DNA of 64,000 nt from the NCBI GenBank assembly GCA_964383665.1, contig CAYLHO010000002.1, positions 138,306 through 202,305 on the forward strand, given 5' to 3'. Each line of letters starts with the position of its first letter. Positions within the stretch are counted from its first letter, which is position 1. Source of the stretch: an uncultured Lachnospiraceae bacterium (GTDB lineage Bacteria; Bacillota; Clostridia; Christensenellales; UBA1242). Shown piece by piece: positions 11,934-45,525 of this stretch. A program made the translations under genes and the position numbers. Under the pieces are notes generated by a model that was not told where the DNA came from, did not search any database, and saw nothing but the letters and a program-made list of their open reading frames with translations.

Positions 11934-11947
11934 GGAGGAAAGAAACA

Positions 11948-20326: not shown

Positions 20327-20356
20327 AAAAACACGCTTTCAAAGCGTGTTTTTTTA
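20323..20356. terminator. bidirectional intrinsic terminator between convergent genes
   Basis: A-run, stem ACACGCTTT / AAAGCGTGT (20331-20349), T7 run. Confidence 0.8.
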
Positions 20357-20689
20357 CATTGATTGTTCTGGGGGAACTTTTTCAAGGCTTGAAACGTTAA
20401 GTGTTGTAATTTGTGTTAAGGAATTGAAAGTTTGGTCGATTGAAATGTTTCTTGCTTTTTCAATTTTGCTGTAGTTAGGAGTTATTTTGTTAAAAATTTG
20501 GATTGCAAAATCAAGGATCTCGGCAACTGAAAGGAACTTTTGTTTGTCATAAACAATAACCTTGTGTTTGTTAAATATTGCAACACCGTGTGAATAATCC
20601 AAATCGGCAATGAAAGAGTCCAAAATTTCAACTTCTTTCTTAAATTCTAATTCTCTTTTTTTTATGAACTTTCTTTGCCTTATTGTCAT
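20354..20689 (-). CDS. hypothetical protein (111 aa)
   Basis: Complete ORF with a GGGAGA SD. No recognisable motif. Confidence 0.55.
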   Translation of the reverse strand: MTIRQRKFIKKRELEFKKEVEILDSFIADLDYSHGVAIFNKHKVIVYDKQKFLSVAEILDFAIQIFNKITPNYSKIEKARNISIDQTFNSLTQITTLNVSSLEKVPPEQSM

Positions 20690-20790
20690 ATTTATCTCCC
20701 TACATATATTTATTATATATCACGCGTTTTTGTTAATGTCAATATCAAAAATAAAAAAATTTTTATTTTTTTGACTAAAAAAAATTTAAT

Positions 20791-20820
20791 TTGACACATC
20801 GCAAAAATTTAAGGTATACT
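20791..20820 (+). promoter_or_regulatory. promoter of the HAD hydrolase gene
   Basis: TTGACA (20791-20796), 18-nt spacer, TATACT (20815-20820). Confidence 0.5.
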
Positions 20821-20845
20821 TGTGGTAAATTAAGGAGAGAAGGAC

Positions 20846-21607
20846 ATGGAAAAATGTGTTATTCTTGTTGACCTCGACGGAACAATTGTTGAAATTGCTG
20901 GGAAAGAAATTAAAGAAAACGTTATTGGCGAAATTAAAAGACTTAAAGAAAATGGGCACATTCTTGTTGTTGCAACCGGAAGGGCAGTTTCAAGCGTTAA
21001 AAACATTTTGGGAGTTGAAAATTTTAACTTTGTTGCATCGATGTTTGGGAACATAATTTTCGATTCAAACGGGAACGTGGAAATTGTTGGGAACTTTTTC
21101 GACGGTGAAGAAGCAAGAAAACTTGTTAATGCGTTTAATGCAAGCGGAAACTACTGGCTTTATAAAACGGCTTTTGAGAATAAGACCATTTTTTTGAACG
21201 AAGAACTTAATCGATTGCATAATGTTAGGGTTGTTTCTAAAAGCGAATTTGAAAGCGATTTGAACAACAACCAAATTTTTCAAATGCTTGCATATGGCGA
21301 GGAAATTGAAAAAGTAAAGGACTATGAAAAATCACAGTTTTTCAGAATGCCTGGTGGCTATTTCGACATAACCCCAAAGGGGAACACAAAGAAAAATGCA
21401 GTTGACTTTTTCAAGAAAAAATTTCCGGGATATAAAACAATTGCAATTGGCGATTCCGAAAACGACGTTGCTGCATTCGAAAATTGTGATGTTTCAATTG
21501 CAATGGGAAATTCTAGCGATGAAATTAAGGCGCACGCAACATATGTTACGAAATCAATTTCGGAAGACGGATTTGTTTATGCCTTTAGAGATATGTTAAA
21601 ACTTTAA
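20846..21607 (+). CDS. Cof-type HAD-IIB family phosphatase
   Basis: 253 aa, AAGGAGAG SD. HAD motif I LVDLDGTIV, motif II VVATGR, motif IV GDSENDVAAFENCDVSIAMGNS. Confidence 0.85.
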   Translation: MEKCVILVDLDGTIVEIAGKEIKENVIGEIKRLKENGHILVVATGRAVSSVKNILGVENFNFVASMFGNIIFDSNGNVEIVGNFFDGEEARKLVNAFNASGNYWLYKTAFENKTIFLNEELNRLHNVRVVSKSEFESDLNNNQIFQMLAYGEEIEKVKDYEKSQFFRMPGGYFDITPKGNTKKNAVDFFKKKFPGYKTIAIGDSENDVAAFENCDVSIAMGNSSDEIKAHATYVTKSISEDGFVYAFRDMLKL

Positions 21608-21678
21608 TATGTCTTCTTTATTTTATTTGAGTTCGATTTTTAACTTTGATATAATAATTTTATTAAAAGGGAAGGGTT

Positions 21679-23397
21679 TTGAAAAAATTATTTCGGTTTT
21701 TTAAGGGGTATAAAAAGCAAATGGTTGGAGCACCGTTGCTTAAGTTTTTTGAAACCATAACCGACATCGTTATTCCGCTTCTTGTTGCAAACATGATTGA
21801 CATAGGCGTTAAGAATCACGATGTTAAATATATTGCAGTTTGGGGCTCGGTTGTTGTTGCGCTTAACATTGTTGGAATTGTTAGCGCAATTCTTTGTGCG
21901 CGCCTTTCGGCAAAAGCATGCTCCGGGGTTAGTTATCAAATGCGCAAGGGCTTATATGAGCACATTAACACTCTTTCCCATGCTGAACTCGACAAGTTTG
22001 GAACGGCATCGCTTAACAACAGAATGACCCATGACGTTTCAAGAATCGACACGGCGCTTGGAATGTTTTTAAGAACAGTTATGCGAACCCCGTTTTTAAT
22101 TATTGGCTCAACTGTTATGGCAATGATAATCGACCTTAAACTTTCGCTTCTTTTCCTTGCTGTTGCGCCGCTTATTTTGCTTGTTGTTTTCTTAATTTTG
22201 AAAAAAACCGAGCCTCTTTATGACAAAACCCAAAAAGATTTGGACAAAGTTTCGGAAATAACCCGCGAAAATTTGGAGGGAGCAAGGGTTATTCGTGCAT
22301 TCAACAAACAAGAGTTTGAGGAAAAAAGATTTTCTTTGGCGGCAAAAAAGCTTAGGAAATCCGCAACAAAAGTTGTTTCAATTTCCTCGCTCATGACGCC
22401 AATAACCGGAACGATAATCAACTTTGCTGTTATTGCGGTTATGTGGTTTGGCGGACTTCAAGTTAACGTTGGAGGTTTAACCCAAGGGCAAATTATTGCG
22501 TTTGTTAACTACCTTCTTCAAATTGCTGCTGCGCTTGTTTCGCTTGCGAACTTGATTATTGCTTTCATTAAAGCATTCAATTGCGCAAACAGAATTAACG
22601 AGGTTTTTGAAACGAAACCTTCGGTTGTTGAAACGAACAAGGAAGAAATTGTTGTTGAAACAACAAATGAAATTCCAAAAATTGAATTTAAAAATGTCAG
22701 CTTTAAATATTCCAATTCCTCAAAAACTGCCGTTAAGAACTTGAGTTTCAAGGCATATCGCGGGCAAACAATTGGAATTATTGGCGGAACAGGAAGCGGG
22801 AAAAGCAGCGTTATTAACCTCATTCCAAGATTCTACGACGCAACAAGCGGAAAGGTTTTGATTGACGGGGTTGACGTTAAAGAATATTCCTTTGGTCAAC
22901 TTCGCGGGAAAATTGGAATTGTTCCTCAAAAAGCAGTTTTGTTTAAGGGCTCGCTTAAGGAAAATCTTCGATGGCGAAAACAAGACGCAACAATTGATGA
23001 AATTCAAAAAGCAATAAGAATTTCGCAAAGCGAGGAGTTTGTTAAGGAACTTCCTGAAAGGTTGAATTTTAAGGTTCAAGCCGGAGGGAAAAACTTTTCG
23101 GGCGGTCAGCGCCAACGCCTAACAATTGCGCGTGCGCTTGTTGGCGACCCCGAAATTCTTATTCTTGACGACAGCGCCTCTGCGTTGGACTTTGCAACCG
23201 ATGCTGCGCTTCGAAAGGCAATTAAAGACGAAGTTGACGCAACGGTTATTTTGGTTTCCCAACGCGCAAATACCGTTCGAAACGCGAACCTCATAATTGT
23301 TATGGAGGGCGGCGATGTTGTTGGAATGGGAACTCATAAGGAACTTATGGAATCTTGCACTGTCTATCAAGAAATCTATTCATCTCAAACAAAATAA
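21679..23397 (+). CDS. ABC transporter permease/ATP-binding protein (type IV exporter half-transporter, subunit 1)
   Basis: 572 aa, TTG start after GGGAAGGG. Six-TM domain plus NBD: Walker A GGTGSGKSS, signature FSGGQRQR, Walker B ILILDDS. Confidence 0.9.
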   Translation: MKKLFRFFKGYKKQMVGAPLLKFFETITDIVIPLLVANMIDIGVKNHDVKYIAVWGSVVVALNIVGIVSAILCARLSAKACSGVSYQMRKGLYEHINTLSHAELDKFGTASLNNRMTHDVSRIDTALGMFLRTVMRTPFLIIGSTVMAMIIDLKLSLLFLAVAPLILLVVFLILKKTEPLYDKTQKDLDKVSEITRENLEGARVIRAFNKQEFEEKRFSLAAKKLRKSATKVVSISSLMTPITGTIINFAVIAVMWFGGLQVNVGGLTQGQIIAFVNYLLQIAAALVSLANLIIAFIKAFNCANRINEVFETKPSVVETNKEEIVVETTNEIPKIEFKNVSFKYSNSSKTAVKNLSFKAYRGQTIGIIGGTGSGKSSVINLIPRFYDATSGKVLIDGVDVKEYSFGQLRGKIGIVPQKAVLFKGSLKENLRWRKQDATIDEIQKAIRISQSEEFVKELPERLNFKVQAGGKNFSGGQRQRLTIARALVGDPEILILDDSASALDFATDAALRKAIKDEVDATVILVSQRANTVRNANLIIVMEGGDVVGMGTHKELMESCTVYQEIYSSQTK

Positions 23398-23424
23398 AAG
23401 TCGAAAATAAATTAGGAGATTAAA

Positions 23425-25437
23425 TTGGCAAAAAAGGAAATTGAACAACAAAGAACAAAAGCGCAGGAACGCGAGTTCAGGAAATTGCAAAAAGCAATTG
23501 CCTCTTTGCCCAAGCCTTCTTTTAATAACCCCGAAAGAGTTCAACCCGCAAAAGAAGTTAACGTTCCAAGCGTCATTCCGGCGGCAATTAATAATCCCGT
23601 TGTTGCTTCAAACGAGGAGAAGGTTCAAAAAATTATTGATGCACCATTAATTTTGGACACCAACTCCAAACGAATTGAAAGCGTTGCAAAAATTAAAAAA
23701 CCAAAAGCTCGCTCAACAATTTTCCGAACCCTTGCCTATCTCAAAAAAGATTGGTGGCTTGTTGTTCTTGCAATTTTGTTTGCAGCAATAAACTCTGTTT
23801 GTGAAATTTTTATCCCAGTTCTAATTGGCGACGGAATTGACTATATCGTTGGGCCAAACGAAGTTCAGTTCGACATGATTTTGAAATATATTGGCTATCT
23901 TTCAATTTGCATTGTTGGATTTGCTCTTTTCAAATGGCTTCTTTCAAGGGTTGCAAATGGGCTTGCCTATCGCGTTGAGCAAAAACTCCATAATGACATT
24001 TTCCAAAAATTCAATAAAGTTCCGCTTAAATATATCGACAATTCAAGCCATGGCGACTTGCAAAGCAGAATGGTTAACGACGTTGACCTTATAACCGATG
24101 GCTTTGTTCTTGGGTTAACAACATTTTTCGATGCGCTTGCAACTGCAGTTTTAACAATTGTTTTTATGCTTCGAATTAACGTCACAATTTCAATTGTTGT
24201 TATTTGCGTAACCCCAATTTCAATTGTTGTTGCTGTTGTTATTGCGAAACTTTGCCACAAACTTTTCAAAAAACAAGCGAAAGCTGTTGGCGACCTTTCT
24301 GGGGTTCTTGTTGAAATGGTTGGGAATCAAAAAATTGTTAAAGGCTTTTCATATGAGGATCGTTCAATTGAAAAGTTTGACGAAATCAATTTGAAACTTA
24401 AAAATGCAAATGAAAAAGCAATGTATTATTCTTCGCTTTCTGCGCCAATTGCGCGTTTTGTTAATGGCTTGCTTTATGCAACCGTTGCAATTATGGGGTG
24501 CTTGTTTGCGCTTAAGGGAACGATGACCGTTGGGAACATTTCGGTTTTGCTTTCGTTTGCGAACAAATATACAAGACCATATAACGACATTGCTGATGTT
24601 TTTGCCGACCTTCAAGCAGCCTATGCCTCGGCGGTTCGTGTTTTCAATGTTTTGGACATGAAAAACGAAATAAGCGATTTTGGTCTTCCAGAAATTAAAA
24701 AATGCACGGGCGAAGTTGTTTTTGAGGACGTAAGTTTTTCCTACACTCAAGAAAAGAAACTTATTCAAACCCTCAACCTTAATGTTAAAAAAGGGCAAAA
24801 GGTTGCAATTGTTGGACCAACAGGCTGCGGCAAGAGCACACTTATAAACTTGCTTATGCGGTTCTATGACGTTGACAAGGGCGAAATTTTTGTAAGCGGC
24901 TATCCAATTGAATCGGTAACCCGAAAAAGCCTTAGACAGCAATATGGAATGGTCCTTCAAGAAACATGGCTGTTTTCCGCGTCAATTCGCGATAACATTG
25001 CCTATGGAAAGGAAAATGCAACCGATGCCGAAATTCGAAAAGCGGCGCGCCTTGCCGGGGCAGACTTCTTCATTCAAACAATGCCAAACGGCTATAACAC
25101 AATCATCAACGAAAATGGCGACAACCTTTCCCAAGGACAAAAGCAACTTATTTGCATTGCGCGCCTTATGCTTGCAAAACCCCCAATGTTAATTTTGGAC
25201 GAGGCAACAAGCAACATTGACACGCGAACCGAGCTTGCAATTCAAAGCGCGTTCGACAAAATGATGGAAGGGAAAACAAGTTTCATCGTTGCCCACAGGC
25301 TTTCAACAATTGTTTCGGCGGACTTAATTCTTGTTATGAACAAAGGAAACATAATTGAGCAGGGAACTCATAAACAGCTTCTTGCCCAAAAGGGTTTCTA
25401 CTACAATTTATATAACAGTCAGTTCAGCAGATATTAA
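23425..25437 (+). CDS. ABC transporter permease/ATP-binding protein (half-transporter, subunit 2) with a ~100-aa N-terminal extension
   Basis: 670 aa, TTG start 7 nt after AGGAG. Walker A GPTGCGKST, signature LSQGQKQL, Walker B MLILDEAT. The N-terminal ~100 residues are hydrophilic and precede TM1. Confidence 0.9.
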   Translation: MAKKEIEQQRTKAQEREFRKLQKAIASLPKPSFNNPERVQPAKEVNVPSVIPAAINNPVVASNEEKVQKIIDAPLILDTNSKRIESVAKIKKPKARSTIFRTLAYLKKDWWLVVLAILFAAINSVCEIFIPVLIGDGIDYIVGPNEVQFDMILKYIGYLSICIVGFALFKWLLSRVANGLAYRVEQKLHNDIFQKFNKVPLKYIDNSSHGDLQSRMVNDVDLITDGFVLGLTTFFDALATAVLTIVFMLRINVTISIVVICVTPISIVVAVVIAKLCHKLFKKQAKAVGDLSGVLVEMVGNQKIVKGFSYEDRSIEKFDEINLKLKNANEKAMYYSSLSAPIARFVNGLLYATVAIMGCLFALKGTMTVGNISVLLSFANKYTRPYNDIADVFADLQAAYASAVRVFNVLDMKNEISDFGLPEIKKCTGEVVFEDVSFSYTQEKKLIQTLNLNVKKGQKVAIVGPTGCGKSTLINLLMRFYDVDKGEIFVSGYPIESVTRKSLRQQYGMVLQETWLFSASIRDNIAYGKENATDAEIRKAARLAGADFFIQTMPNGYNTIINENGDNLSQGQKQLICIARLMLAKPPMLILDEATSNIDTRTELAIQSAFDKMMEGKTSFIVAHRLSTIVSADLILVMNKGNIIEQGTHKQLLAQKGFYYNLYNSQFSRY

Positions 25438-25439
25438 AA

Positions 25440-25460
25440 ACGGCATAAGCCGTTTTTTTT
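25440..25460 (+). terminator. intrinsic terminator after the ABC exporter pair
   Basis: Stem ACGGC / GCCGT, loop ATAA, T8 run. Confidence 0.7.
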
Positions 25461-25698
25461 CTTTCAAATTGAAAAATTTAATTGAAAAATATTGTAAGAG
25501 TTTTAACAAAATTTTTCGAAAAATTTACACTTTTTGTTATAAAATAAACTTTTTTTCTTTAAAAAAGCCCGAAAATACGGCGGTTTGTCGAATTTTTAAG
25601 AAAAATAAAAAAATTTTTAAAAAAAGCGTGAAAATGTTTTGCGTTTTTGGGAATGCTATGTATAATAATAAGGAAATCTAAAAAAGGAGGGGGATGAT

Positions 25699-26223
25699 AT
25701 GAAGTTAAAAGCTAAGTTGATCTCAACAATCGCTGCGTTTGCTATGGTTCTTTGCTTAACAATCGTTGGTGTTTGGGCAGCTGCTTCAGTTAAGGTAAAC
25801 GTAACTGGAACTGTTACATACTCAACTCAAGACGTTAACGTTAAAGTTGAAGGCTCAATCGCTGGTATTGTAGGCGCTAGCGAAAAAACTTTCACTCAAG
25901 AATGGGACGCTGATGACACAACCGGCGAAGCAACATGGGCTCTTGGAGACATCGCATTCGAAAAGAACGCACAAGTTGTTATCACATTGAAAGTTACAAA
26001 CCTCAGCACAGAAGATAACATCACAGCTACATTGTCAAACCAAGGCGCTGCTTCTGGAACAAACACAACAGCAGCTCTCGGAGCAACAACAACAGCAACA
26101 ATCAACGCTTCTGCTTCTGAAACAAAGAATTCACAAGAATTCACTTTCACAATCACTGTTGGTGACTGGAACAAAGCAGCAAGCTACACAATTGATCTTG
26201 ACTTAGATATCGTTAAGGCTTAA
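25699..26223 (+). CDS. small secreted T/A/N/G-rich protein with a SipW/TasA-type signal peptide (putative matrix or fibre subunit)
   Basis: 174 aa with a very strong SD (AAGGAGGGGG). Signal peptide MKLKAKLISTIAAFAMVLCLTIVGVWAAAS resembles the ...GGTWAAF... end of TasA-family signal peptides. The only cysteine lies in the signal peptide, so the mature part has none. Codon usage is atypical for the window (ATC 10 : ATT 2, AAC 9 : AAT 1, TTC 4 : TTT 1). Confidence 0.6.
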   Translation: MKLKAKLISTIAAFAMVLCLTIVGVWAAASVKVNVTGTVTYSTQDVNVKVEGSIAGIVGASEKTFTQEWDADDTTGEATWALGDIAFEKNAQVVITLKVTNLSTEDNITATLSNQGAASGTNTTAALGATTTATINASASETKNSQEFTFTITVGDWNKAASYTIDLDLDIVKA

Positions 26224-26253
26224 TTGTTTAGTTGAAAGAAAAGGGTTATTTCA

Positions 26254-26299
26254 TCATAAATAAGAAATTATTTATGAAAGAGATAACTCTTTTTTTTTA
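26254..26299 (+). terminator. tandem hairpins / terminator after the secreted-protein gene
   Basis: A 10-bp AT-rich stem TCATAAATAA / TTATTTATGA (26254-26277), then AAAGAG / CTCTTT with a T9 run (26277-26299). Confidence 0.5.
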
Positions 26300-26430
26300 G
26301 TTTTATATTGCTTTTTTGTTTAAAAGAAAAAATTAATTTGAAAATTACCCATAAAACTTTTTGAGTTTTGAATTAAATAATATATAATGTAAAGGTAAAT
26401 ACTAATATAAAAGGAAATTAGAGGGGGAAA

Positions 26431-27168
26431 ATGAAAAGACTTTCGAAAGCATTTAATGTTATAACCGATGTCATTTTCTTTTTGGTAATGGGGTTGCTTA
26501 TTGTTTACCTTGTTATTTCATTCTCTGCTAAATTTTCTCATGGTGTTCCTTCCTATTTTGGCTATTCCTATGTTCGCGTTATGTCGCGCTCGATGGAGGC
26601 AAGCGGAATTTACAAGGGAGACATTGTTGTTCTTAAAAGAGTTAACGTTTCCGAAATTAAAGTTGGAGATGTTATTGCATACTATCTTTATGACGGCTCG
26701 CCGGTCCAATTCCCTGCAGATGGGGACGAACCTGAAGAAGTTTTGGACTATCCAACAAACCAAGAGTCTCATAAAACAACAATAATTTTCCACCAAGTTG
26801 TTTCCATTCGCGTTGATAAATACGGTCATCGCTGGTTTAGGACGTATGGAACAAGCAACATAAACACCGAAACAGGTAAACCAATTCTTGACCCATGGGT
26901 TCGCGGGGATTATGTTATTGGAATTTATAATCAAACATGGGTTGCAAGTGTTATTAAGTTCATAACCTCAACAGCCGGAATCATAACAATTGTTGTTGTT
27001 CCGTCGGCGCTTGTTGCGCTAATGCTTCTTTTCAGCATGATCGACACGGTTGACAAAATGATGAAAATGAAAAAACTTGCAGCAGCGCTTCCAACAACCT
27101 CGGGGCTTATTGAGGGTGAGGACAATCCGGACGCAGAAAAGCCGCCGGAAGAGCAAAAAGACGAATAG
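26431..27168 (+). CDS. sipW: signal peptidase I, SipW/archaeal-ER type (S26B), with a C-terminal TM segment and acidic tail
   Basis: 245 aa, GAGGGGG SD. N-terminal TM, catalytic-Ser box VMSRSMEAS (compare SGSMEP), GDIVVLKR, His box IIFHQVVSI. It also has an extra C-terminal TM (IITIVVVPSALVALMLLF) and an E/D/P-rich end. Confidence 0.75.
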   Translation: MKRLSKAFNVITDVIFFLVMGLLIVYLVISFSAKFSHGVPSYFGYSYVRVMSRSMEASGIYKGDIVVLKRVNVSEIKVGDVIAYYLYDGSPVQFPADGDEPEEVLDYPTNQESHKTTIIFHQVVSIRVDKYGHRWFRTYGTSNINTETGKPILDPWVRGDYVIGIYNQTWVASVIKFITSTAGIITIVVVPSALVALMLLFSMIDTVDKMMKMKKLAAALPTTSGLIEGEDNPDAEKPPEEQKDE

Positions 27169-27197
27169 AAAAAACGCTTTGATAAAAGCGTTTTTTT
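27169..27197. terminator. bidirectional intrinsic terminator between convergent genes
   Basis: A-run, stem CGCTTT / AAAGCG (27175-27190), loop GATA, T7 run. Confidence 0.75.
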
Positions 27198-28239
27198 AAA
27201 TCACATTGTTTTGAACCCTTTTAATCATTTGATTAATTTCCCTGTTTGCATTCATAACAATGATTTCTGTGTTTGGATTATCGGATTTCCAAACCCTAAA
27301 AATCTCATCGGCAAAGGCTTGACCAATTTTTGGAACCAAACGGAAATCAAGGCAAATTTCTTTAAACTTATTCATTCCTGTCATTAGGCGTCTTGCTTGC
27401 GAACGAGAAATGTAGATTGATTCACTTTCATTATATTCAAGGCGTTTAACTGAAATAATGGTTTTGCAAAAACCTTCATCTGGATCTGCAAATTGATTGA
27501 AAACTTCGCTTAAAGAAATTTTATTTGCAATGCTAATTTTGAATGCAACAGCTGTCCCTTTAAATTGCTTATTTTTTTGAACAATTGCTTTATCGTCGTC
27601 GGGTTTGGAAAGATTTGCGGTTGAGAATGTTAAGTCGTTTGCAAGAATTAAGAAATAGTCGGCGCATTTTGACGAAAAGAAAATTCCTTCTCCCGTGTGT
27701 GATTTTGGGTTCGTTGTAACTTTCCCTTTCATAAGTTCGAAAACCGAATGTTCAATATTTTCAAGATTAAATTTTCTTTTAATTTTCTCGAAAATTCCAA
27801 CCCCATTATCAATTACATAGGTTGTAACATCAACCGACGTTATGCTCATAATAACTTTAATTTCATTTCCTTCGGAATGTTCAATTGCGTTGTTAAAAAT
27901 TTCTGAATAGATATAATCAAAAATTTCTCGTGCATTTTGGGGGAGGAATGAAACTAAAGGTCGAACCTCGCTTAACGATTCAAATTCACTTATTTTTCCA
28001 ATTGAATATTTAAATTCCTTATCAACAGGAACAAGCGTAAGTTTTTGGGTTCTTCCAACTCGTTTTTTTCGAATAACATTATCATTTGAGAGCTTATTAA
28101 TAAGCTTATAAATTGCTTGAACTGAAACTCCAAATTCATTTGAAAGGTTATGGATTAATTCCGCATCTAAAAGATGTTGGGAAATATTAACTAAAATTTT
28201 TTCAATTAATGTGTTTTTATTTTCTTTACTTATCGACAT
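27196..28239 (-). CDS. wHTH + GHKL (HATPase_c, SpoIIAB-like) + STAS-like (DUF4325) fusion protein
   Basis: 347 aa, GGAG SD. N-terminal HTH LSNEFGVSVQAIYKLINKL. Bergerat-fold boxes: N box EIFNNAIEHS, G1 VIDNGVGI, G2 HTGEGIFF. The C-terminal SRSQARRL...DFRLVPKIGQAFADEIFRVW matches the DUF4325 STAS-like signature. Confidence 0.75.
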   Translation of the reverse strand: MSISKENKNTLIEKILVNISQHLLDAELIHNLSNEFGVSVQAIYKLINKLSNDNVIRKKRVGRTQKLTLVPVDKEFKYSIGKISEFESLSEVRPLVSFLPQNAREIFDYIYSEIFNNAIEHSEGNEIKVIMSITSVDVTTYVIDNGVGIFEKIKRKFNLENIEHSVFELMKGKVTTNPKSHTGEGIFFSSKCADYFLILANDLTFSTANLSKPDDDKAIVQKNKQFKGTAVAFKISIANKISLSEVFNQFADPDEGFCKTIISVKRLEYNESESIYISRSQARRLMTGMNKFKEICLDFRLVPKIGQAFADEIFRVWKSDNPNTEIIVMNANREINQMIKRVQNNVI

Positions 28240-28288
28240 GTTTTTTCTCCATTGTAATTATATCCCTTGTGTCAAGATATATAACTAA

Positions 28289-28408
28289 ATTGTAAACTTA
28301 AATTTAACAATTGTCAACTTAAATTTAACAATTGTAAACTTAACAAAGGTTAATTGTAAACTTAATGATGATTGATTGTAAACTTAAGGTCTTTAATTGT
28401 AAACTTAA
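28289..28408. repeat. six direct copies of the 13-bp motif ATTGTAAACTTAA, phased every 21-22 bp (putative operator or iteron array)
   Basis: Copies start at 28289, 28310 (variant ATTGTcAACTTAA), 28331, 28353, 28375 and 28396. The spacings are 21, 21, 22, 22 and 21 bp. Copies 1-3 belong to a longer 21-bp unit (…ATTTAACA spacer). The array lies between divergent genes. Confidence 0.9.
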
Positions 28409-28440
28409 TTTTGCACTTTTGCAATTTTAAACGATTTGTT

Positions 28441-28469
28441 TTGAAAAAAGGTTGTATATATTATATAAT
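28441..28469 (+). promoter_or_regulatory. promoter of the HD hydrolase gene
   Basis: TTGAAA (28441-28446), 17-nt spacer, TATAAT (28464-28469). It starts 33 bp after the last repeat copy. Confidence 0.55.
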
Positions 28470-28488
28470 ATATTTGTAGGAAGGAAAA

Positions 28489-29070
28489 ATGGACTATCAA
28501 GAAGAGTTTAAGAAAATTTTTAAGGAAAACATAAAGCGCGAAGGCTCTGACAAACTTTTGGAGTGGCTTGAAAAAAGTGATTTTTTCTCTGCGCCTGCGT
28601 CAACAAAATTCCACAGCGCCCATGAAGGCGGTCTTTGCGAGCACAGCGTTAAGGTTTACGAAAGATTTTTGAAACTTGTTAGAAACGAGTTTGGCGAAAA
28701 TTTTGAGGAAAAAATTTCAAAAGAAAGCATCGCATTAATTGCGCTTTGTCATGACGTTTGCAAAGTTAACACCTATAAAACAGACTTTCGAAATGTTAAG
28801 GAAAACGGGGCATGGGTTCAAAAGCCATATTATGCCGTTGACGACAAGTTGCCATATGGTCATGGCGAAAAATCGGTTTACATAATCAACGGATTCACTC
28901 GCCTTTCTCGCGAGGAAGCGCTTGCAATAAATTGGCACATGGGCGCGTTTGACCTTCGAGTTCAAGGCGGAAGTTATGCGCTTAAAGATGCATATTTGGC
29001 ATATCCAACCGCGCTTCTTCTCCACATTGCCGATGTTATGGCAACATATTTAGACGAGGAACAGGGTTAA
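28489..29070 (+). CDS. HD-domain phosphohydrolase (YhaM-like HD domain without the OB fold)
   Basis: 193 aa, AGGAAGGA SD. Motifs APASTKFHSAHEGGLCEHS ... ALCHDVCK ... YGHGEKS ... LLLHIADVMAT, consistent with an H..HD..D metal-binding set. Confidence 0.75.
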   Translation: MDYQEEFKKIFKENIKREGSDKLLEWLEKSDFFSAPASTKFHSAHEGGLCEHSVKVYERFLKLVRNEFGENFEEKISKESIALIALCHDVCKVNTYKTDFRNVKENGAWVQKPYYAVDDKLPYGHGEKSVYIINGFTRLSREEALAINWHMGAFDLRVQGGSYALKDAYLAYPTALLLHIADVMATYLDEEQG

Positions 29071-29076
29071 GAAAAA

Positions 29077-29101
29077 ACTTGGGTTATCCCAGGTTTTTTT
29101 C
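29077..29101 (+). terminator. intrinsic terminator after the HD gene
   Basis: Stem ACTTGGG / CCCAGGT (one G-U pair), loop TTAT, T8 run. Confidence 0.7.
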
Positions 29102-29130
29102 TTTTCAAATGGGAATTTATGTGATACAAT
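29102..29130 (+). promoter_or_regulatory. promoter directly abutting the divIB/ftsQ-like ATG (possible leaderless transcript)
   Basis: TTTTCA (29102-29107), 17-nt spacer, TGa-TACAAT (29122-29130). The ATG at 29137 is exactly 6 nt after the -10 box and no SD is present. Confidence 0.5.
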
Positions 29131-29136
29131 TTACAT

Positions 29137-30042
29137 ATGAAATTTTTAAAGAAGCATAAAAAAGCAACAATAATTTGTTCCTGTGTTTTGGTTTTGCTTA
29201 TTGTTCTTGTTATTTTAATGTTCACTCTTTTTTCGCTTAAAGAGGTTAAAGTTGAATATAAAACAGGAAGGATTAATTTAACCGATGAAATAACAACCGA
29301 AATTGAAAACGAAGCGCTTAAAACGGGCGGCTCGGTTTTGTTTTTGGGAAAGGAAAAGCTTATTTCGCGCCTTGAAAAGCAATTCCCATATTTAAAAATT
29401 GTTAACATTGAAACTCAAATTCCAAACAAACTTGTTATCCATGCTGTTGAGCGCGAGGAATTTTTTGCAATCAATTCCGGCGAAAAATCGTATTTTCTTG
29501 ATGAGGAATTCAAAATTCTTAAAGTTGAAAATTCAACGTACGTAAAGCAAGAAAATGGGCCTGTTTTGCTTTCATTTGGAAGCGTTTTTCTTGATGAAAG
29601 TTCAAAAGCATACGCCGCACCAATCGATCTTAACCTTTCGGGCGCAGAAGCAGGGCAGGTTTTAAGCATTGCAAGTTCAAGCGATGAAAACTCATATTTT
29701 TCAAAGAAACTTGAAACAATTTCGCGTTCAATTTTAACTGCTTTTGAAGAAAACAAATTTCAAATTTCTGATGTTCGAAGCAAATATTTAAGTTTCGATG
29801 TTTTCTTTAAACCAATTGAGGTTTCAACAGTTGTTTCATGGCAACCTTGCTTAAAAATTGTTGACACAGCAAATTTTGAAACGCAAATTATTCTTGCCGA
29901 TTCGGATTTGACCGAAAAAATTTCGGTTATGAACGAGGCATTTTCTGCTGCTTCAAAAAATCCAGCGCTTTTAACAAACAAAGTTCTCTATGTTTTCGAA
30001 AACAACAACAAGGAAATTGCTTATTCGTTTTTAGACAAATGA
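29137..30042 (+). CDS. FtsQ/DivIB-like cell-division protein
   Basis: 301 aa. Short basic N-terminus, a single TM (IICSCVLVLLIVLVILMFTLF), then a POTRA-like start LKEVKVEYKTGRINLTDE. Its position is immediately upstream of ftsA-ftsZ. Confidence 0.6.
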   Translation: MKFLKKHKKATIICSCVLVLLIVLVILMFTLFSLKEVKVEYKTGRINLTDEITTEIENEALKTGGSVLFLGKEKLISRLEKQFPYLKIVNIETQIPNKLVIHAVEREEFFAINSGEKSYFLDEEFKILKVENSTYVKQENGPVLLSFGSVFLDESSKAYAAPIDLNLSGAEAGQVLSIASSSDENSYFSKKLETISRSILTAFEENKFQISDVRSKYLSFDVFFKPIEVSTVVSWQPCLKIVDTANFETQIILADSDLTEKISVMNEAFSAASKNPALLTNKVLYVFENNNKEIAYSFLDK

Positions 30043-30071
30043 TTGACATTCAATTTTTGGCGTTATATAAT
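30043..30071 (+). promoter_or_regulatory. consensus promoter for the membrane-protein gene inserted in the division cluster
   Basis: TTGACA (30043-30048), 17-nt spacer, TATAAT (30066-30071). Confidence 0.65.
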
Positions 30072-30088
30072 CACAATAGGAGATACAT

Positions 30089-30790
30089 ATGAAAAAGTTT
30101 TTATTATCATTTGTTTCATTAATTTTCTCGTCAGTTATGCTTGTTGCGCTAATTTGCCCGCTTTCAAGTTTCCAAAACAAGTTGAAGGATTCCGGCGAGG
30201 ATAAAAAATCTTTTGCCCAACAGGTTACAATGCTCGATTTCGTTGAAAGTTTGTTCGCAAACGAAGAAAAAGCAGATGAAGCCGAGAAAGACTACTTGGC
30301 AAAGAATGTTGAAATAACAAATGAAGTTTCAAATGATGATTCAATTTCAAACGAGAACAAACTTACTGAAATTAATGTCAGGAAATTGAACTCAAGAGAG
30401 ATTGCGAAACGTGACGTTTTCAATTTTGCAACAATAGAAAATCTTGCAATTGAATATGAAATTGCCGGTGGGAATCTAATAACCCAAACAAAAGCTGTTG
30501 GCGGGCTTTCAATTGCATTCTTGATTTGTGTTGGGCTTGTTATTGTTGTTAACGTTTTGGCTTTGCTTATAAGCAGCCCAAAACTTAGAGGTGTTGCCTC
30601 GTTCTTAACCTTCCTTGCGTGTCTTTTAAGCATTGCAATTGTTATCGTTTTGGAAGTTGCATTCAGTGTTACAGGAATTCTTTACACATTATATGCAAAA
30701 GCTCTTTGGGCAGGATATGTTGTTATTGCCTACACAGCAGTTTATTTCTTATTCCGACTTTTCATTAATTCAAAGTTAAAGAAAATGTAA
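30089..30790 (+). CDS. hypothetical membrane protein (233 aa)
   Basis: AGGAGA SD. N-terminal signal/TM, an acidic coiled region, then about 4 C-terminal TM helices. No family recognised. Confidence 0.6.
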   Translation: MKKFLLSFVSLIFSSVMLVALICPLSSFQNKLKDSGEDKKSFAQQVTMLDFVESLFANEEKADEAEKDYLAKNVEITNEVSNDDSISNENKLTEINVRKLNSREIAKRDVFNFATIENLAIEYEIAGGNLITQTKAVGGLSIAFLICVGLVIVVNVLALLISSPKLRGVASFLTFLACLLSIAIVIVLEVAFSVTGILYTLYAKALWAGYVVIAYTAVYFLFRLFINSKLKKM

Positions 30791-30817
30791 ATTTTAATTT
30801 TTAAATTTTAAGAAAAA

Positions 30818-30844
30818 CAGTTGACTTTCTCAACTGTTTTTTTT
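30818..30844 (+). terminator. intrinsic terminator
   Basis: Stem CAGTTGA / TCAACTG, loop CTTTC, T8 run. Confidence 0.75.
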
Positions 30845-30916
30845 ATAATTATAAAAAAATTGATTAAATATACATAATCAGTTTGCGCAAAAGAAAAACC
30901 AAGGAGAAACGCGAAG

Positions 30917-32071
30917 ATGCAAAAGAAATATGCTGCAATTATGGACATCGGCTCATCGAAAATAACCGTTCTAATTGGCCAACAAGGGGTTAACAATTCC
31001 TTTGTTATCAAGGGGAAGGGTGAAGCGGACTACGCTGGTTTTTCCGATGGGGAATTCCTTGAAATTGACGAGCTTAAATATGCTTGCGGGTTTGCCCTTT
31101 CAAAGGCTCAAGAACAAGCAAGAATGAAAGTTGAAGCGCTTTATGTTGGCGTTCCTGCGGAGTTTTCTTTTTGCGATTGCACAGAAGTTGAAACCTGCTT
31201 TAAAAGAAAGGTTAAAATCACGAATGAAGATGTTTCCTATCTATATTCTAAAGCGCTTAATAAAGAAATTATGAAGTCGAAAACTCTTGTTTCTTGTTCG
31301 CCGCTTTGGTTTAAACTTGACGACGGGCGAAGAACTTTTGATTTTGGTCAACAAAAGACAACATTGCTTCGCGCCAAGGTTAGTTTGATTTATGTTGAGA
31401 ATTCGTTTATTTCGCTTTTCAATGAAACTTTGGGGCAACTTGGAATTGAATCGGTTGAATATATTTCTTCCTCTCTTGCCCAAGCAAACTACCTTTTAAC
31501 GCCGTTTGAACAACAACGTGGAGCAATTATTGTTGACATTGGCTACATAACAACAAGTGTTTGTGGAGTTCTTGGAAGTGGGCTTGCCGGATTAAGTGCA
31601 TTTTCGCTTGGGGGAGCGCACATAAGCGGAGATTTCTGCGAGGGATTTGAAATTTCCTTTGCAGAAGCCGAACAACTTAAAAAAGAAATTGTGTTAAGTG
31701 TAAATTCAAAAAAGGCAGGGAATTATGAGATTAATGTTGAAAATCAAGTTTTGTTTGTGCCAATTGCTTCTGCAAATGAAATAGTTCGCGAAAGGATTGA
31801 AATGATTGCTTCTTTCATCATGCGAAGTTTCCAAAAGTTTTCAGAGCAAAATTTGGAAAATGCCCAAGTTTACTTGACAGGCGGGGGGCTTTCGTATATA
31901 ACTGGAGGTAGAGAATACCTTGAAAAATGCCTTGGAAGAGATATAAAACTTCTTGCTCCAGACGTCCCGGCATTTTCAAAGCCAAATTTTTCAAGTTCGC
32001 TTTCAGTTTTGAGCGAAGCGCTTAAAAAACAAGTTAAAACCACAAATTGGTTCACAAAATTATTTAATTAA
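30917..32071 (+). CDS. ftsA: cell division protein FtsA
   Basis: 384 aa, AAGGAGAA SD. Actin-fold phosphate-1 motif [15 protein letters not shown], later [10 protein letters not shown] and [11 protein letters not shown]. Adjacent to ftsZ. Confidence 0.9.
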
Positions 32072-32081
32072 GGAGAAATTT

Positions 32082-33287
32082 ATGTATTCAGAAAACAGCA
32101 TTGGCCCAGTTGCCAACATTAAAGTTGTTGGAATTGGTGGAGGCGGAAACAACGCCGTTAACCGCATGATTAATGCGAACATAACAAGCGCACAATTTGT
32201 TGCAATTAACACAGATAAACAAGCGCTTTTAATGAGCAAGGCAGATTTACGCCTTCAAATTGGTGAAAAATTAACAAGAGGACTTGGCGCAGGCGCCGAT
32301 CCTGAAGTTGGTCAAAAAGCTGCCGAGGAAAGCAAAGCAAGCATAACAGAAATGCTTAAGGATTCCGACCTTGTTTTCATAACCGCAGGAATGGGCGGAG
32401 GAACAGGAACGGGAGCTGCTCCTGTTGTTGCTCAAATCGCAAAAGACATGGGAATTTTAACAATTGCTGTTGTAACAAAACCTTTTAATTTTGAAGGCAG
32501 AAAGAGAATGGAAAATGCTGAAAGAGGATTGGAAGGGCTTAGAAAATATGTTGACACATTGGTTGTTATTCCAAACGACAAGTTGTTGAAACTTGTTCCA
32601 AAAGGAACGCCAATTGTTGAGGCATTCCGCTATGCAGACGATGTTTTACGTCAAGGAATTCAAGGAATTTCCGACTTAATTGTAACTCCAAGCTTAATCA
32701 ACCTCGACTTTGCCGATGTACGTTCAATCATGAAAAACAAAGGCCTTGCCCACATGGGAATTGGTCGCGGAAAAGGCGAAAACAAAACAATTGAGGCTGT
32801 TCGTCAAGCTGTTTCAAGTCCACTTCTTGAAACAACAATTGAAGGCGCAACGGGTGTTTTGATTAACGTTAAGGGCGGAAACGACTTGCCTCTTGATGAA
32901 GTTTATGAGGCTGTTGACCTTGTTAAGGAAGTTGTTGACGAAACTGGAAACATCATTTTCGGTGCTGCAATTGACGAGGCAATGAATGATGAAGTTGAAA
33001 TAACAATCATTGCAACAGGCTTTAAAGGAACACCAGACGAAGAACCTGAAGTTGAAAAAGCACGTGAAGACGTTCAAGCATATGGAAGTTTCGACAAGGA
33101 AAAATATGACCAATATGTTCAAAAGAACGAAACAAACGCTCTTGGACTTGGCGTTAGAAGAGTTGTTGAGGAAAGACGTCCAGAACCTGAACTAGAAATT
33201 GTTGAAGAACCAATTCAAACTTCAAGAATTTCAATTCGCGAAGCCGACATTCCTCCATTCCTTAGAAAAATTAAAAAAGACAGATAG
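32082..33287 (+). CDS. ftsZ: cell division GTPase FtsZ
   Basis: 401 aa. [15 protein letters not shown], tubulin signature [18 protein letters not shown], and the C-terminal peptide DIPPFLRK. Confidence 0.98.
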
Positions 33288-33291
33288 AAAG

Positions 33292-33315
33292 CAGGGCAGA
33301 TGCCCTGTTTTTTTG
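33292..33315 (+). terminator. intrinsic terminator after ftsZ
   Basis: Stem CAGGGC / GCCCTG followed by a T7 run. Confidence 0.75.
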
Positions 33316-33342
33316 TTGCAAAAACAAATAAAAATTATTGTT

Positions 33343-33370
33343 TTGTTTGAAATAAAAATTGTGGTAAAAT
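33343..33370 (+). promoter_or_regulatory. promoter abutting the gpmI ATG (possible leaderless transcript)
   Basis: TTGTTT (33343-33348), 16-nt spacer, TGg-TAAAAT (33362-33370). The ATG at 33377 is 6 nt after the -10 box and there is no SD. Confidence 0.5.
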
Positions 33371-33376
33371 TCTTGT

Positions 33377-34900
33377 ATGATAACAATGACAATTTTAGAT
33401 GGTTATGGCGAAAGAAACGAAAAAGAAGGGAATGCAATTTTCGGAAATTCACCTAACATAAACAAACTCAAAAAATCTTTCCCAAATTGTTTGCTTGAGG
33501 CAAGCGGAAAGGCTGTTGGGCTTTCGGAAGGGCAAATGGGAAACAGCGAAACTGGGCATTTAAACCTTGGAAGTGGGCGTGTTGTTTTTCAAGACCTTGA
33601 AAGGATTAATCAGGCAATTGAGAACTGCTCGTTTCAAAAGAATGAGGTTATAAAAGAAGCTGCGGCTTATGCTAAAAAGAACAAAAGCAATGTCCATGTT
33701 ATGGGGCTTTGTTCAAACGGCGGAATTCACAGCAAAATTGAGCATGCAAAACAACTTATTCTTTCACTAAAAAAGTTGGGAGTTAAGAAAGTATATTTCC
33801 ATGCGTTCCTTGATGGACGCGACACTCCAATTGACAGCGGAATTGGTTATTTTGGCGAAGTTTCTCGTTTTCTTAAAGAAGAGGAAATTGGCGAAGTTAT
33901 AACTGTTTCAGGGCGTGTTTACGCAATGGACAGAGAGCAGCGCTTCGAGCGAGTTCAACGTGTTTATAACATGCTAACAGGAACAGGGGCGGAAGGATAT
34001 AACGAGGTTTCAAATCTTCGAAAAGCAATTGAAAACAACTATAACAAAGGTGTTTACGATGAATTTATGCCCCCAATAAAACTTGTTGGAAGCCCGGATA
34101 TTGAAAGCGGAGATGTTATTATTTCCTATAACTTTCGAACCGACAGAATGCGCGAATTGATTTCTGCACTTTCTCAAAAAAATTTTAAGGCATTTGAACG
34201 CAAAAAACTTGAAAATCTTTATGTTGCAACCATGACGGAATATGACAAAACATTCAAAAACATAAATGTTATTTTTAAACCAGAAAAAATTAAAAACTGT
34301 CTTTCTGAGGTTCTTGCGAAAAACAATTTAAAACAACTTCGAATTGCTGAAACAACGAAATATGCGCATGTGACCTTCTTTTTCAACGGAGGAATTGAAA
34401 AACCTTTTCAAGGAGAGGAAAGAAGTCTTGTTGAAAGCATTAATGTTCAAAATTTTTCCTCTGTTCCAAAAATGAGAGCAAAGGAAATTACGCAAAGGGC
34501 AATTTCGGCAATTAAGAGCAAAAAATATGACTTTATATTAATCAATCTTTCAAATCCCGACATGATTGGACACACTGGCGATTTCAACGCGGCAAAAAAA
34601 GCGATTAAATTTGTTGATAAATGCGCCAATCAAATTGTTAAGGCAACCCTTAAATTTGGAGGCGATGCAATTGTTACGGCGGACCATGGGAACGCGGAAC
34701 TCATGTTTGAGAACGGAAAAGTTGTTACCTCCCACACAACCAATCCTGTTCCATTCATTCTTGCAAGCAAACGTTTAAAAAATTGCGAGTTAAAAGAGCA
34801 TGGGAAACTTGGAAACGTTGCTCCAACAATTTTGGAGTTGTTTGGGATTAAAAAACCAAAAGAAATGACGGAAAATTCGCTTTTAATTAATAAAAATTGA
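33377..34900 (+). CDS. gpmI: 2,3-bisphosphoglycerate-independent phosphoglycerate mutase
   Basis: 507 aa. ILDGYG...NAI, catalytic-Ser region GQMGNSETGHLNLGSGR, C-terminal ADHGNAE. Confidence 0.92.
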   Translation: MITMTILDGYGERNEKEGNAIFGNSPNINKLKKSFPNCLLEASGKAVGLSEGQMGNSETGHLNLGSGRVVFQDLERINQAIENCSFQKNEVIKEAAAYAKKNKSNVHVMGLCSNGGIHSKIEHAKQLILSLKKLGVKKVYFHAFLDGRDTPIDSGIGYFGEVSRFLKEEEIGEVITVSGRVYAMDREQRFERVQRVYNMLTGTGAEGYNEVSNLRKAIENNYNKGVYDEFMPPIKLVGSPDIESGDVIISYNFRTDRMRELISALSQKNFKAFERKKLENLYVATMTEYDKTFKNINVIFKPEKIKNCLSEVLAKNNLKQLRIAETTKYAHVTFFFNGGIEKPFQGEERSLVESINVQNFSSVPKMRAKEITQRAISAIKSKKYDFILINLSNPDMIGHTGDFNAAKKAIKFVDKCANQIVKATLKFGGDAIVTADHGNAELMFENGKVVTSHTTNPVPFILASKRLKNCELKEHGKLGNVAPTILELFGIKKPKEMTENSLLINKN

Positions 34901-34979
34901 ATTTTATTTTGTTATTAATTTATAATTGTATATAATAATATTTAGTTAAAGTTACTAAAAATTGGCAATTGGAGGCTCT

Positions 34980-37661: not shown

Positions 37662-37662
37662 T

Positions 37663-37693
37663 AAAAAAAACTCGCATTGTTGCGAGTTTTTTT
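37663..37693. terminator. bidirectional intrinsic terminator (VirB4-like gene / greA)
   Basis: A8 run, stem CTCGCA / TGCGAG, loop TTGT, T7 run. Confidence 0.85.
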
Positions 37694-37704
37694 ATGAAAT
37701 CTAA

Positions 37705-38175: not shown

Positions 38176-38190
38176 TCTGTCCTCCTGTTA

Positions 38191-38226
38191 ATAAAAAGAA
38201 GAGCCATTGATAAATCAATGTTCTTC
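38191..38226 (-). terminator. terminator-like hairpin + U-tract inside the greA leader (possible attenuator)
   Basis: Minus-strand RNA: GAAGAACAUUGA-UUUA-UCAAUGgCUCUUC (12 bp with 1 bulge) followed by UUUUUAUU. It ends 15 nt before the greA ATG and lies downstream of the putative promoter at 38239-38267. Confidence 0.55.
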
Positions 38227-38238
38227 AAAAGCAGATAG

Positions 38239-38267
38239 ATAATACACCAATCGAATTAACATGTCAA
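38239..38267 (-). promoter_or_regulatory. putative greA promoter
   Basis: On the minus strand: TTGACA (38267-38262), 17-nt spacer, TATTAT (38244-38239). Confidence 0.5.
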
Positions 38268-38325
38268 CTAATTTTTTTGAGATTATCCACTTATTTTTTA
38301 TTTATATTCAACTTAAGCAAAATTA

Positions 38326-38541: not shown

Positions 38542-38603
38542 TATCAAACCTTCCTTATATTTTTATTTTAGTATCTATTTAAACAAAAAGCAAGAAAAAT
38601 TTT

Positions 38604-40578: not shown

Positions 40579-40613
40579 CTTTCTAGTATTTCAAAATAAA
40601 GCCAAAAATATTT

Positions 40614-45524: not shown

Positions 45525-45525
45525 C

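Follow-up and report, generated by a model that had tools for sequence, protein, structure and literature searches.

A divergent SipW-like signal peptidase and its small secreted neighbour as a candidate surface-fibre system in an uncultured gut Firmicute

In this study, we analysed a 64,000-nucleotide stretch of DNA from an uncultured Lachnospiraceae bacterium (contig CAYLHO010000002.1; hereafter the window), in which the gene of a 174-aa protein, here called the subunit, is followed by that of a divergent SipW-like signal peptidase. With moderate confidence, we favour the reading that this protein is made in abundance as the major building block of a SipW-dependent fibre, located at the cell surface or outside the cell, in an uncultured spore-forming gut Firmicute. 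Secretion, abundance and processing by the adjoining peptidase are predicted with good confidence, while the chance that the subunit polymerises by strand exchange, a step proposed by analogy, appears roughly even. A SipW-type peptidase with a cognate fibre subunit is a known type of system, and the present locus suggests that SipW logic, consisting of a private endoplasmic reticulum (ER)-type peptidase, a specialised leader and an N-terminal strand, is applied here to a different, pilin-like subunit family.

The original prediction had described the protein as very highly expressed, and high expression is still the best reading of its codon bias, Shine-Dalgarno (SD) sequence, promoter and private terminator. 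The block of promoter and 5' leader is near-invariant across the window and two GTDB genomes, L001 ('uncultured Firmicutes' UMGS687) and L002 (a related metagenome-assembled genome, MAG), and sequence further upstream cannot be aligned. In the window this block holds a -35-like TTGCGT (25639-25644), a spacer of 16 nt and a -10 element TATAAT (25661-25666), the -35 element of L001 and L002 being TTGAAA. The promoter is not listed in the generic promoter scan of the window, because its -35 element agrees with the consensus at only three of six positions. The SD sequence AAGGAGGGGG (25684-25693) is followed after 5 nt by the ATG, and its duplex energy of -14.5 kcal/mol against the canonical anti-SD ranks second among 39 genes. 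The earlier statement that it is the strongest SD of the window was therefore slightly overstated, that rank belonging to a clpB/clpC-like gene at 50351 (-19.3 kcal/mol). Behind the coding region, a long terminator hairpin (dG -29.5 kcal/mol, z = -8.56, with none of 200 shuffled sequences folding as well) precedes a U-run, and an equivalent element is found in L001 and L002. With this private terminator the subunit gene is therefore taken to be monocistronic.

Codon usage sets the gene apart from its surroundings. The counts given in the original prediction are exact, with ATC used 10:2 over ATT, AAC 9:1 over AAT and TTC 4:1 over TTT. Taken over Phe, Tyr, Ile and Asn, C- and T-ending codons stand at 25:4 in the subunit gene and at 1367:2687 in the background of long open reading frames (ORFs; odds ratio 12.3, p = 9e-9), and the NNC fraction of 0.79 is the most extreme of the window, where the 38 other genes range from 0.16 to 0.54. 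These other genes do favour ATT and TTT as claimed, but prefer AAC over AAT (706 vs 550), so this part of the claim has to be withdrawn. The bias towards C-ending codons is seen again in the orthologues of loci L001, L011 and L004, and among three tandem paralogues of L012 it is confined to the first (0.64 vs 0.33 in the background), the other two being unbiased. Judged by codon bias, the subunit is probably among the most abundant proteins of these cells. For so clear an NNC outlier within its window the skew could also indicate a horizontally acquired gene, as had been considered initially, an explanation which is effectively refuted by the surroundings and by the nature of the skew. L001, L002, L010 and L011 share with the window the order ABC-ABC-subunit-peptidase-HD-ftsQ-x-ftsA-ftsZ, no mobile-element genes flank the pair, the G+C content at third codon positions (0.33) lies inside the window range of 0.19-0.40, and the skew recurs in orthologues of other lineages. 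Its direction, C over U at Phe, Tyr, Ile and Asn, reportedly constitutes a general signature of translational selection, as described by Sharp and co-workers in 2005.

It should be noted, as a separate observation on the 38 non-subunit genes (e.g. 169..63265), that their Val codons are extreme for a GC content of 36%, with GTT at 1267 (92%), GTA at 54, GTC at 31 and GTG at 22, and that the Leu codon CTT (896) lies far above TTA (303). This suggests an unusual tRNA-Val/Leu repertoire or a mutational bias in the lineage. A tRNA scan found no tRNA genes in the window and an Rfam scan of it gave no match.

The translation confirmed both the signal peptide end and the Cys-free, T/A/N/G/V-rich mature part that had been noticed at first sight. 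T, A, N, G and V make up 54% of the mature part, which also lacks Pro, His, Met and Arg. Scans with Pfam and NCBIfam matched no family to the subunit. A word-indexed search returned 134 clusters of relatives with 168-178 aa, none of them with a Pfam domain or an informative name, and those named copies in NCBI and JGI that were checked are all 'hypothetical protein'. An exhaustive profile search enlarged the family, clustered at 50% identity, to 860 clusters (E<=1e-3), of which 316 reach E<=1e-10. Of the suggestion that this may be a distinct minimal family, only the distinctness is retained, since many members span 300-990 aa. Among the best 149 relatives, 75 have a length of at least 270 aa, and BspA-type leucine-rich repeats (LRR) of the LRR_5 family were found in 46 of these 75 long relatives, with LRR_8, Flg_new_2 or DUF285 in others. 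The family is found in uncultured gut Firmicutes of humans and pigs, with fusion to BspA-type LRR adhesin domains on a large scale. Matches to NF053819 (EF0750 LPXTG) in 31 of 64 relatives were dismissed, as they cover the leader region only and reach about 14 bits where the cut-off is 47. Neither Pfam (2025 copy) nor NCBIfam release 20 covers the leader class, the subunit family, the subtype of peptidase or the architecture with LRR fusions, a statement of coverage that leaves out the PHROGs library, and a narrow literature search on TasA-like pili or signal peptidase in Clostridia found no paper.

Conservation within the family is concentrated at the N-terminus. All 27 leader residues are invariant in a set of 29 orthologues with about 60% identity in their mature parts, and even at locus L004, where identity of the mature part to that of the window has dropped to 32%, the leader is identical at 27 of 27 positions. 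The best 149 relatives share the leader consensus M-[ST]-L-K-x-K-L-x-S-x-I-x-A-F-x-x-V-x-x-L-x-x-V-G-V-[WFL]-A, followed by A-x-x-x-x-V-x-x-G-G-x-V-S-F-x-A-x-D-V-x-A-x-V-x-G. Measured over these 149 cluster representatives, information per column amounts to 2.96 bits in the leader, 2.68 at positions 28-52 and 1.72 in the rest. The cleavage motif G-V-(W/F/L)-A/A fits the -3/-1 rule, with V at -3 in 122 of 149 and at -1 either A (132 of 149) or S (17 of 149). Synonymous differences between the window and L004 number 5 of 24 in the leader and 26 of 44 in the compared remainder, a roughly two-fold lower rate in the leader from a small sample, which would be equally expected from strong codon selection near the start codon and not only from constraint at the RNA level. 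Whereas the subunit falls into over 100 clusters at 90% identity (P0001-P0120), the peptidase of the same organisms (P0273) forms a single cluster of 164 members at >=90%. The mature domain therefore diversifies much faster than the peptidase or its own leader.

The peptidase ORF begins 208 nt downstream of the subunit ORF and is preceded by a promoter of its own, which matches 10 of 12 consensus positions, is the best promoter match of the region and lies in a block TTG(A/G)ATTAAATAATATATAAT kept in L001 and L002. The assignment as an S26B, SipW-type signal peptidase could be upheld for a genuine though divergent enzyme. The model of archaeal/ER-type signal peptidase I, TIGR02228, is passed narrowly (55.3 bits vs a cut-off of 51.85, E 6.5e-15), while the SipW equivalog NF046067 is far from reached (56.3 bits vs 190), and by these profiles the peptidase is a SipW-like enzyme, not a SipW orthologue. 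The Pfam S24/S26 models gave nothing at E<=1, and sequence searches of the PDB with the single sequence and with a profile gave no match. The predicted layout consists of a first transmembrane segment, an extracellular catalytic domain into which 27 aa are inserted, a second transmembrane segment and a conserved cytoplasmic tail. The hydrophobic segments lie at residues ~7-35 and ~177-206, and the tail of 42 aa holds 11 D/E vs 6 K/R. The C-terminal membrane segment, initially regarded as unusual, is normal, since SipW of B. subtilis (Ser47, His87, Asp106) likewise has one, with a functional tail on the cytoplasmic side. Invariant in eight peptidase homologues are M-S52-x-S54-M55, T-I-I-F-H121, G140-T141-x-N143, D154 and D160, and the Ser and His motifs are also present in the peptidases of L012, L014 and L017. 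The box B Ser and the box D His, the latter in place of the Lys of the bacterial type, are both present, as is characteristic of S26B, where the boxes were assigned by motif resemblance to SipW Ser47/His87 and SEC11A Ser56/His96.

The pairing of the two genes was followed across further genomic loci. A scan of genome contigs with patterns from the invariant leader of close orthologues gave 2 loci, and one of metagenomes with alignment A6 gave 7. The order HAD-ABC-ABC-subunit-peptidase-HD-ftsQ-membrane protein-ftsA-ftsZ is common to the window, L001, L002, L010 and L011, the window having one extra convergent gene (27196..28239) between peptidase and HD. Between the window and L001, identity is 88-98% for the housekeeping neighbours, 72% for the peptidase and 61% for the subunit, and such fast divergence of the subunit would fit an exposed protein. 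At L017 the subunit is ~35% identical and the upstream genes differ, and at L004 both flanks differ, yet the peptidase is still adjacent in both. In L012 and L014, three tandem paralogues and, directly behind them, a peptidase gene lie between holA and der, and the peptidase bears a long tail rich in Ala, Thr, Ser and Lys. Altogether, the adjacency is kept in four or five different contexts (window, L001, L002, L010, L011, L017, L004, L012 and L014), and the pairing is thereby conserved in evolution. In the third paralogue of L012 and L014, as in a comparable one of L019, the hydrophobic segment is longer and the V-x-A motif is missing (e.g. IGVALFFIIRERENIIEVDG); judged by sequence, these proteins look like uncleaved membrane anchors.

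The tail of the L012 and L014 peptidases (2641..4062 and 8984..10381, respectively) deserves separate mention, as it is a low-complexity extension of ~240 aa past the second transmembrane segment which, by the expected topology, would be cytoplasmic, an odd location for such a sequence.

From the motif and the pairing we infer cleavage by the adjoining peptidase. An uncleaved signal-anchor, which would tether the subunit to the membrane as a small ectodomain and leave the peptidase to other substrates, for instance as general signal peptidase, is improbable in our estimation. It would account for the long and extremely conserved h-region, typical of functional transmembrane helices, it has a precedent in the uncleavable paralogues of the family, and in a lineage whose genome seems small (UMGS687 MAG of 634 kb at 74% completeness) one signal peptidase might suffice. 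However, the conserved G-V-(W/F/L)-A/A obeys the -3/-1 rule and is in line with the known TasA cleavage site, the anchor-type paralogues differ precisely by loss of this motif, and the adjacency to the peptidase persists while the flanks change.

The TasA query used for comparison is identical to PDB 8aur over residues 28-261, with the mature chain starting from A28 after GGGTWA. When the family alignment A4 (64 sequences) was compared by hhalign with the TasA-family alignment A7 (30 sequences, all with PF12389), only columns 1-30, the leader, were aligned (probability 68.7%, E 4.5e-5), placing MsLKAKLvSTIAAfcmVicLl.VGVwAAs opposite M.iKKKlglGvaSAALGlSLVGGGTWAAFN; against TasA alone, columns 1-51 were aligned at a probability of 18.5%. 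PF12389 (Peptidase_M73) gave no match at E<=1 for the subunit and is not among the families listed for the 75 long relatives, and NF046066 gave none at E<=10, the TasA control scoring 509 bits. For the signal-peptide models, of which TIGR04088 had been named as a check on the leader, neither the full protein nor its first 44 residues matched TIGR04088, TIGR04089 or TIGR04090 at E<=10, whereas two proteins of the TasA family, TasA itself (38.0 bits) and another member (46.7 bits), passed the TIGR04088 cut-off of 19 in the same run; among the 25 listed of 55 families matched by the 64 relatives, the three models are likewise absent. By these comparisons the leader is of the same kind and register as that of TasA yet constitutes a distinct class, and the mature domain is without detectable sequence relationship to TasA. 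The description as TasA-like consequently stands for the leader and finds no support for the mature domain, which TasA, BsaA and Pfam models leave unmatched.

At the level of organisation, a likeness to tapA-sipW-tasA of B. subtilis, whose SipW belongs to MEROPS S26B, is evident. Both systems place an ER/archaeal-type peptidase gene beside that of a secreted substrate, the leader has 27 residues in both, with a short K-rich start and a G-x-W-A/A end in register, and in both leader and first mature strand are the most conserved parts, the TasA family showing 3.57 bits per column in the leader, 2.91 in the first mature strand and 2.50 in the rest. The operons of L012 and L014, with a major subunit, more paralogues and an anchor-like protein, resemble tasA/tapA, and the C-terminal membrane segment with its cytoplasmic tail resembles that of SipW. 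In contrast, the mature subunit is smaller than TasA (147 vs 234 aa), a plain beta-sandwich is predicted for it, the PF12389 and TasA-profile matches and the TIGR04088 leader match are lacking, and many members of its family carry LRR adhesin domains. The peptidase departs from SipW by its score (56 bits against the cut-off of 190), the 27-aa insertion and GTSN in place of GDNN, and the two genes are separate transcription units here, unlike those of tapA-sipW-tasA.

The clostridial sipW-bsaA-bsaB-bsaC locus of C. perfringens shares with the present system a proposed SipW-dependent small subunit and paralogous subunits in one operon. For BsaA, assembly by N-terminal donor-strand exchange at the outer face of the membrane upon SipW cleavage has been proposed (PMC11580942). 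The subunit differs in that TIGR04090 is unmatched and in that, among the window genes scanned, no VWA protein, sortase or type IV pilus gene lies nearby; the Lys-Asn isopeptide lock of BsaA was not found in it, nor was one looked for. In the archaeal bundling pili AbpA/AbpB of Pyrobaculum calidifontis and in other TasA-like archaeal filaments, a beta-rich subunit processed by signal peptidase I forms a donor-strand polymer without chaperone or usher, alongside an anchor or nucleator protein (PMC9245690). Our proposed scheme is similar in its processed beta-rich subunit, strand insertion and anchor-type partner. It departs from AbpA, a TasA jelly-roll homologue with no dedicated peptidase gene nearby, in that the fold looks different and a dedicated archaeal-type peptidase adjoins. 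Among the protein scaffolds of biofilms in Gram-positive bacteria and archaea, SipW-dependent fibres (TasA, BsaA, AbpA-like) are understood best, and to our knowledge every known example has the TasA jelly-roll. N-terminal strand donation builds the fibres of TasA, BsaA and AbpA as well as chaperone-usher pili.

Structure prediction was carried out for the full-length protein with 29 orthologues (pLDDT 78) and for the mature domain with 71 diverse sequences (AlphaFold2, pLDDT 87.8, pTM 0.83), the latter giving an 11-strand beta-sandwich whose least confident part is its first 10 residues (pLDDT 55). Foldseek searches of the PDB, which had been suggested as a check on the TasA fold, placed FimA on top for both models, in self-complemented and wild-type form (E 7e-5 to 4e-4, probability 0.98-1.00), and no TasA chain appeared among the best 50 of ~1000 matches in either search. 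Further matches among those listed were CfaB, a Bacteroidales fimbrial protein and Gram-positive adhesin domains. Such structure comparisons can miss TasA relatives (PMC9245690). FimA and the subunit are alike in size and in T/A/G/V/N-rich composition, and the FimA donor strand, TVNGGTVHFKGEVVNA / AATTVNGGTVHFKGEVVNA (PDB 2jty, where it is appended for self-complementation), resembles the N-terminal family consensus TVNLGGTVSFTATDV.A and lies at the same distance from the cleavage site. We regard this pilin resemblance as a mechanistic hint that is probably convergent rather than due to homology. The window genes scanned gave no match to chaperone or usher domains, the subunit is not classed as a chaperone-usher pilin, and the host, probably a monoderm spore-former, would be without the outer membrane of FimA systems. 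FimA itself is exported by an ordinary Sec signal, which LepB removes. Matches of the subunit in PDB sequence and profile searches (Cu/Zn superoxide dismutase, BACOVA_04980) were at chance level and were discarded, and a sortase-assembled pilin was rejected, as the protein ends in ...IDLDLDIVKA, without LPXTG or C-terminal hydrophobic tail, and no sortase is found among the neighbours.

We propose a model in which the subunit gene would be transcribed alone from a strong, conserved promoter and translated efficiently, the product being exported via Sec by its specialised 27-residue leader. The peptidase with its two transmembrane segments would recognise this leader and cut after V-W-A27, freeing the conserved N-terminal beta-strand AAS.(T)V.V(T/G)G.V.(Y/F), which could then be donated to the beta-sandwich of the next subunit, leading to a non-covalent chain as in TasA, BsaA, AbpA and chaperone-usher pili. 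Longer paralogues, in which the same leader and assembly module are fused to BspA-type LRR, might serve as adhesive subunits of the same fibre, and the paralogue without cleavage motif in other lineages might act as membrane anchor or nucleator.

The main rival to this model shares its first steps. An abundant, non-polymerising surface or coat protein would likewise have its leader cut by the adjoining peptidase, but would remain a monomeric wall- or membrane-associated stalk or coat, with LRR display in the long paralogues. We consider this rather unlikely, though it is the alternative to be taken most seriously. A shared N-terminal module with variable C-terminal LRR domains is also what one expects of a display or attachment module, the structural similarity to pilins is weak (TM-score 0.31-0.40), and the window genes scanned include no assembly chaperone, sortase or usher gene nearby. 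On the other hand, conservation is higher in the first mature strand than in the body, as in TasA and as expected of an inter-subunit strand, and this strand is also the least confident part of the monomer model. Operons with a codon-biased major, an unbiased minor and an anchor-type paralogue mirror a logic of major subunit, minor subunit and anchor, and scans with Pfam and NCBIfam revealed no known wall-binding domain.

It is to be weighed against the fibre model, first, that the enzyme is atypical in box E. This box reads G140-T141-S-N143 (GTSN) where GDNN is canonical, leaving D154 and D160 as candidates for the catalytic Asp. In human SEC11A, the box E Asp is structural and pairs with an Arg following the catalytic His, and a later Asp is catalytic; both partners of this salt bridge are replaced in the peptidase (H121-Q122, G-T141), which looks like coordinated change rather than decay. 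In a small genome the enzyme could moreover be the sole type I signal peptidase instead of a dedicated one, and no peptidase was found within 3-10 kb of the family members at L013, L015/L016 and L020. The window holds no second family member and thus neither an anchor-type nor an LRR paralogue. The missing TIGR04088 match belongs on the same side. For the FimA matches, TM-scores reach only 0.31-0.40 at a root mean square deviation of 9.5-13.8 A (0.27-0.40 and 9-15 A at the widest), and strands rich in T, A, G, V and N in both proteins might account for them. An hhalign comparison of the family with FimA lacked significance (E 0.11), and polymerisation itself is proposed by analogy.

A third alternative concerns the life stage at which the protein would act. 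TasA was first described as a spore-associated protein, CotN, and SipW activity is needed for its entry into spores, so the subunit could be a structural protein of the spore (coat, exosporium or appendage) rather than of a vegetative fibre. YqfD is encoded in the window, family members of L007, L012 and L014 have a SpoIVA gene as neighbour, and in the same lineage a second paralogue directly follows spoIIR-sleB-ypeB and precedes the gerA operon. We nevertheless hold a spore role to be very improbable, considering that the promoter is of the housekeeping sigma type, with a consensus -10 element and, in L001 and L002, five of six -35 positions, that strong translational codon selection is more typical of bulk growth proteins, and that the window copy lies beside ftsQ/ftsA/ftsZ and not beside sporulation genes. 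The second paralogue, P0166, is itself a possible spore-related family member. It is encoded at L015 7621..8211 (also L016), has 196 aa with ~17 extra cytoplasmic residues before the leader and keeps VGVWA/A, and the MAG lineage in which it occurs is probably the same as that of P0035-type orthologues.

Returning to the fibre model, we infer a location at the surface, and with its probable high abundance the subunit would therefore be a candidate for a major surface antigen, for a scaffold of adhesins and for a phage receptor. The combination of an invariant leader with an abundant exposed protein could also serve as a handle for detecting or enriching these organisms. More tentatively, and with the odds rather against so broad a claim, the family may represent an unrecognised, widespread class of SipW-dependent pili in uncultured gut Clostridia with a fold unrelated to TasA. 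In such a class, one cassette of leader and donor strand would serve shaft, LRR-tipped adhesin and uncleaved base subunits, and an atypical S26B peptidase (GTSN, without the Arg-Asp salt bridge), evolving together with the near-invariant leader that it reads, would couple cleavage to polymerisation. If true, this would add a third principle of Gram-positive pilus assembly beside sortase and type IV pili, and would place a pilus in small-genome organisms that may live attached to hosts or other cells.

Table 1. Coordinates of the subunit-peptidase locus and its expression signals in the window
Feature	Position	Strand	Details or source
Conserved promoter and 5' leader block	25627..25698	+	Inter-locus alignment with L001, L002; read from sequence
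Subunit ORF	25699..26223	+	174 aa
Leader peptide, codons 1-27	25699..25779	+	MKLKAKLISTIAAFAMVLCLTIVGVWA; predicted cleavage V-W-A/A (before AAS)
Mature subunit, 147 aa and stop	25780..26223	+	N-terminal strand AASVKVNVTGTVTYSTQDVNVKV, then beta-sandwich body
Intrinsic terminator	26232..26300	+	Long hairpin, then U-run; RNA fold
Peptidase promoter, sigma-70 type	26361..26388	+	TTGAGT, 16 nt, TATAAT; promoter scan
Divergent ER/archaeal-type (S26B, SipW-like) signal peptidase I	26431..27168	+	245 aa; TIGR02228
Short hairpin with T-runs on both sides	27170..27197	.	AAAAACGCTTT-GAT-AAAAGCGTTTTTTT; inspection only

The short hairpin behind the peptidase gene, which is not among the results of the terminator scan, is likely, from its sequence, a bidirectional terminator between this gene and the convergent one at 27196..28239. 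The latter, encoded on the minus strand with a GC content of 31.6%, specifies a protein of 347 aa with an N-terminal HTH-like region, HATPase_c and a C-terminal STAS-like DUF4325. Its counterpart is absent from this position in L001 and L002, and it is probably a lineage-specific insertion. PADLOC returned only a weak CARF-like match to the HTH region, which is uninformative.

Regarding the host, the UMGS687 MAG from pig faeces has 634 kb at 74% completeness and a GC content of 36.2% (PMC8772591). Sporulation and germination genes of the lineage are represented by YqfD in the window (53380..54582) and by SpoIIR, SleB, YpeB and GerA in L015, and the host would accordingly be a spore-former with an unusually small genome. 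Further along the window, a gene at 11948..20326 (+), downstream of an ABC ATPase gene and of a gene for a 533-aa protein without family, encodes a protein of 2792 aa with Big_2 and hyaluronate-lyase N-terminal beta domains, which is probably a giant surface protein and is not a member of the subunit family. Between iPGM and greA, the gene at 34962..37661 (+) encodes an 899-aa HerA/TraG-type P-loop ATPase with a weak PADLOC match to mad8/HerA, and at 1103..5811 (-) the gene for a DUF2201 metallopeptidase/VWA-like protein adjoins that for an 836-aa protein without family.

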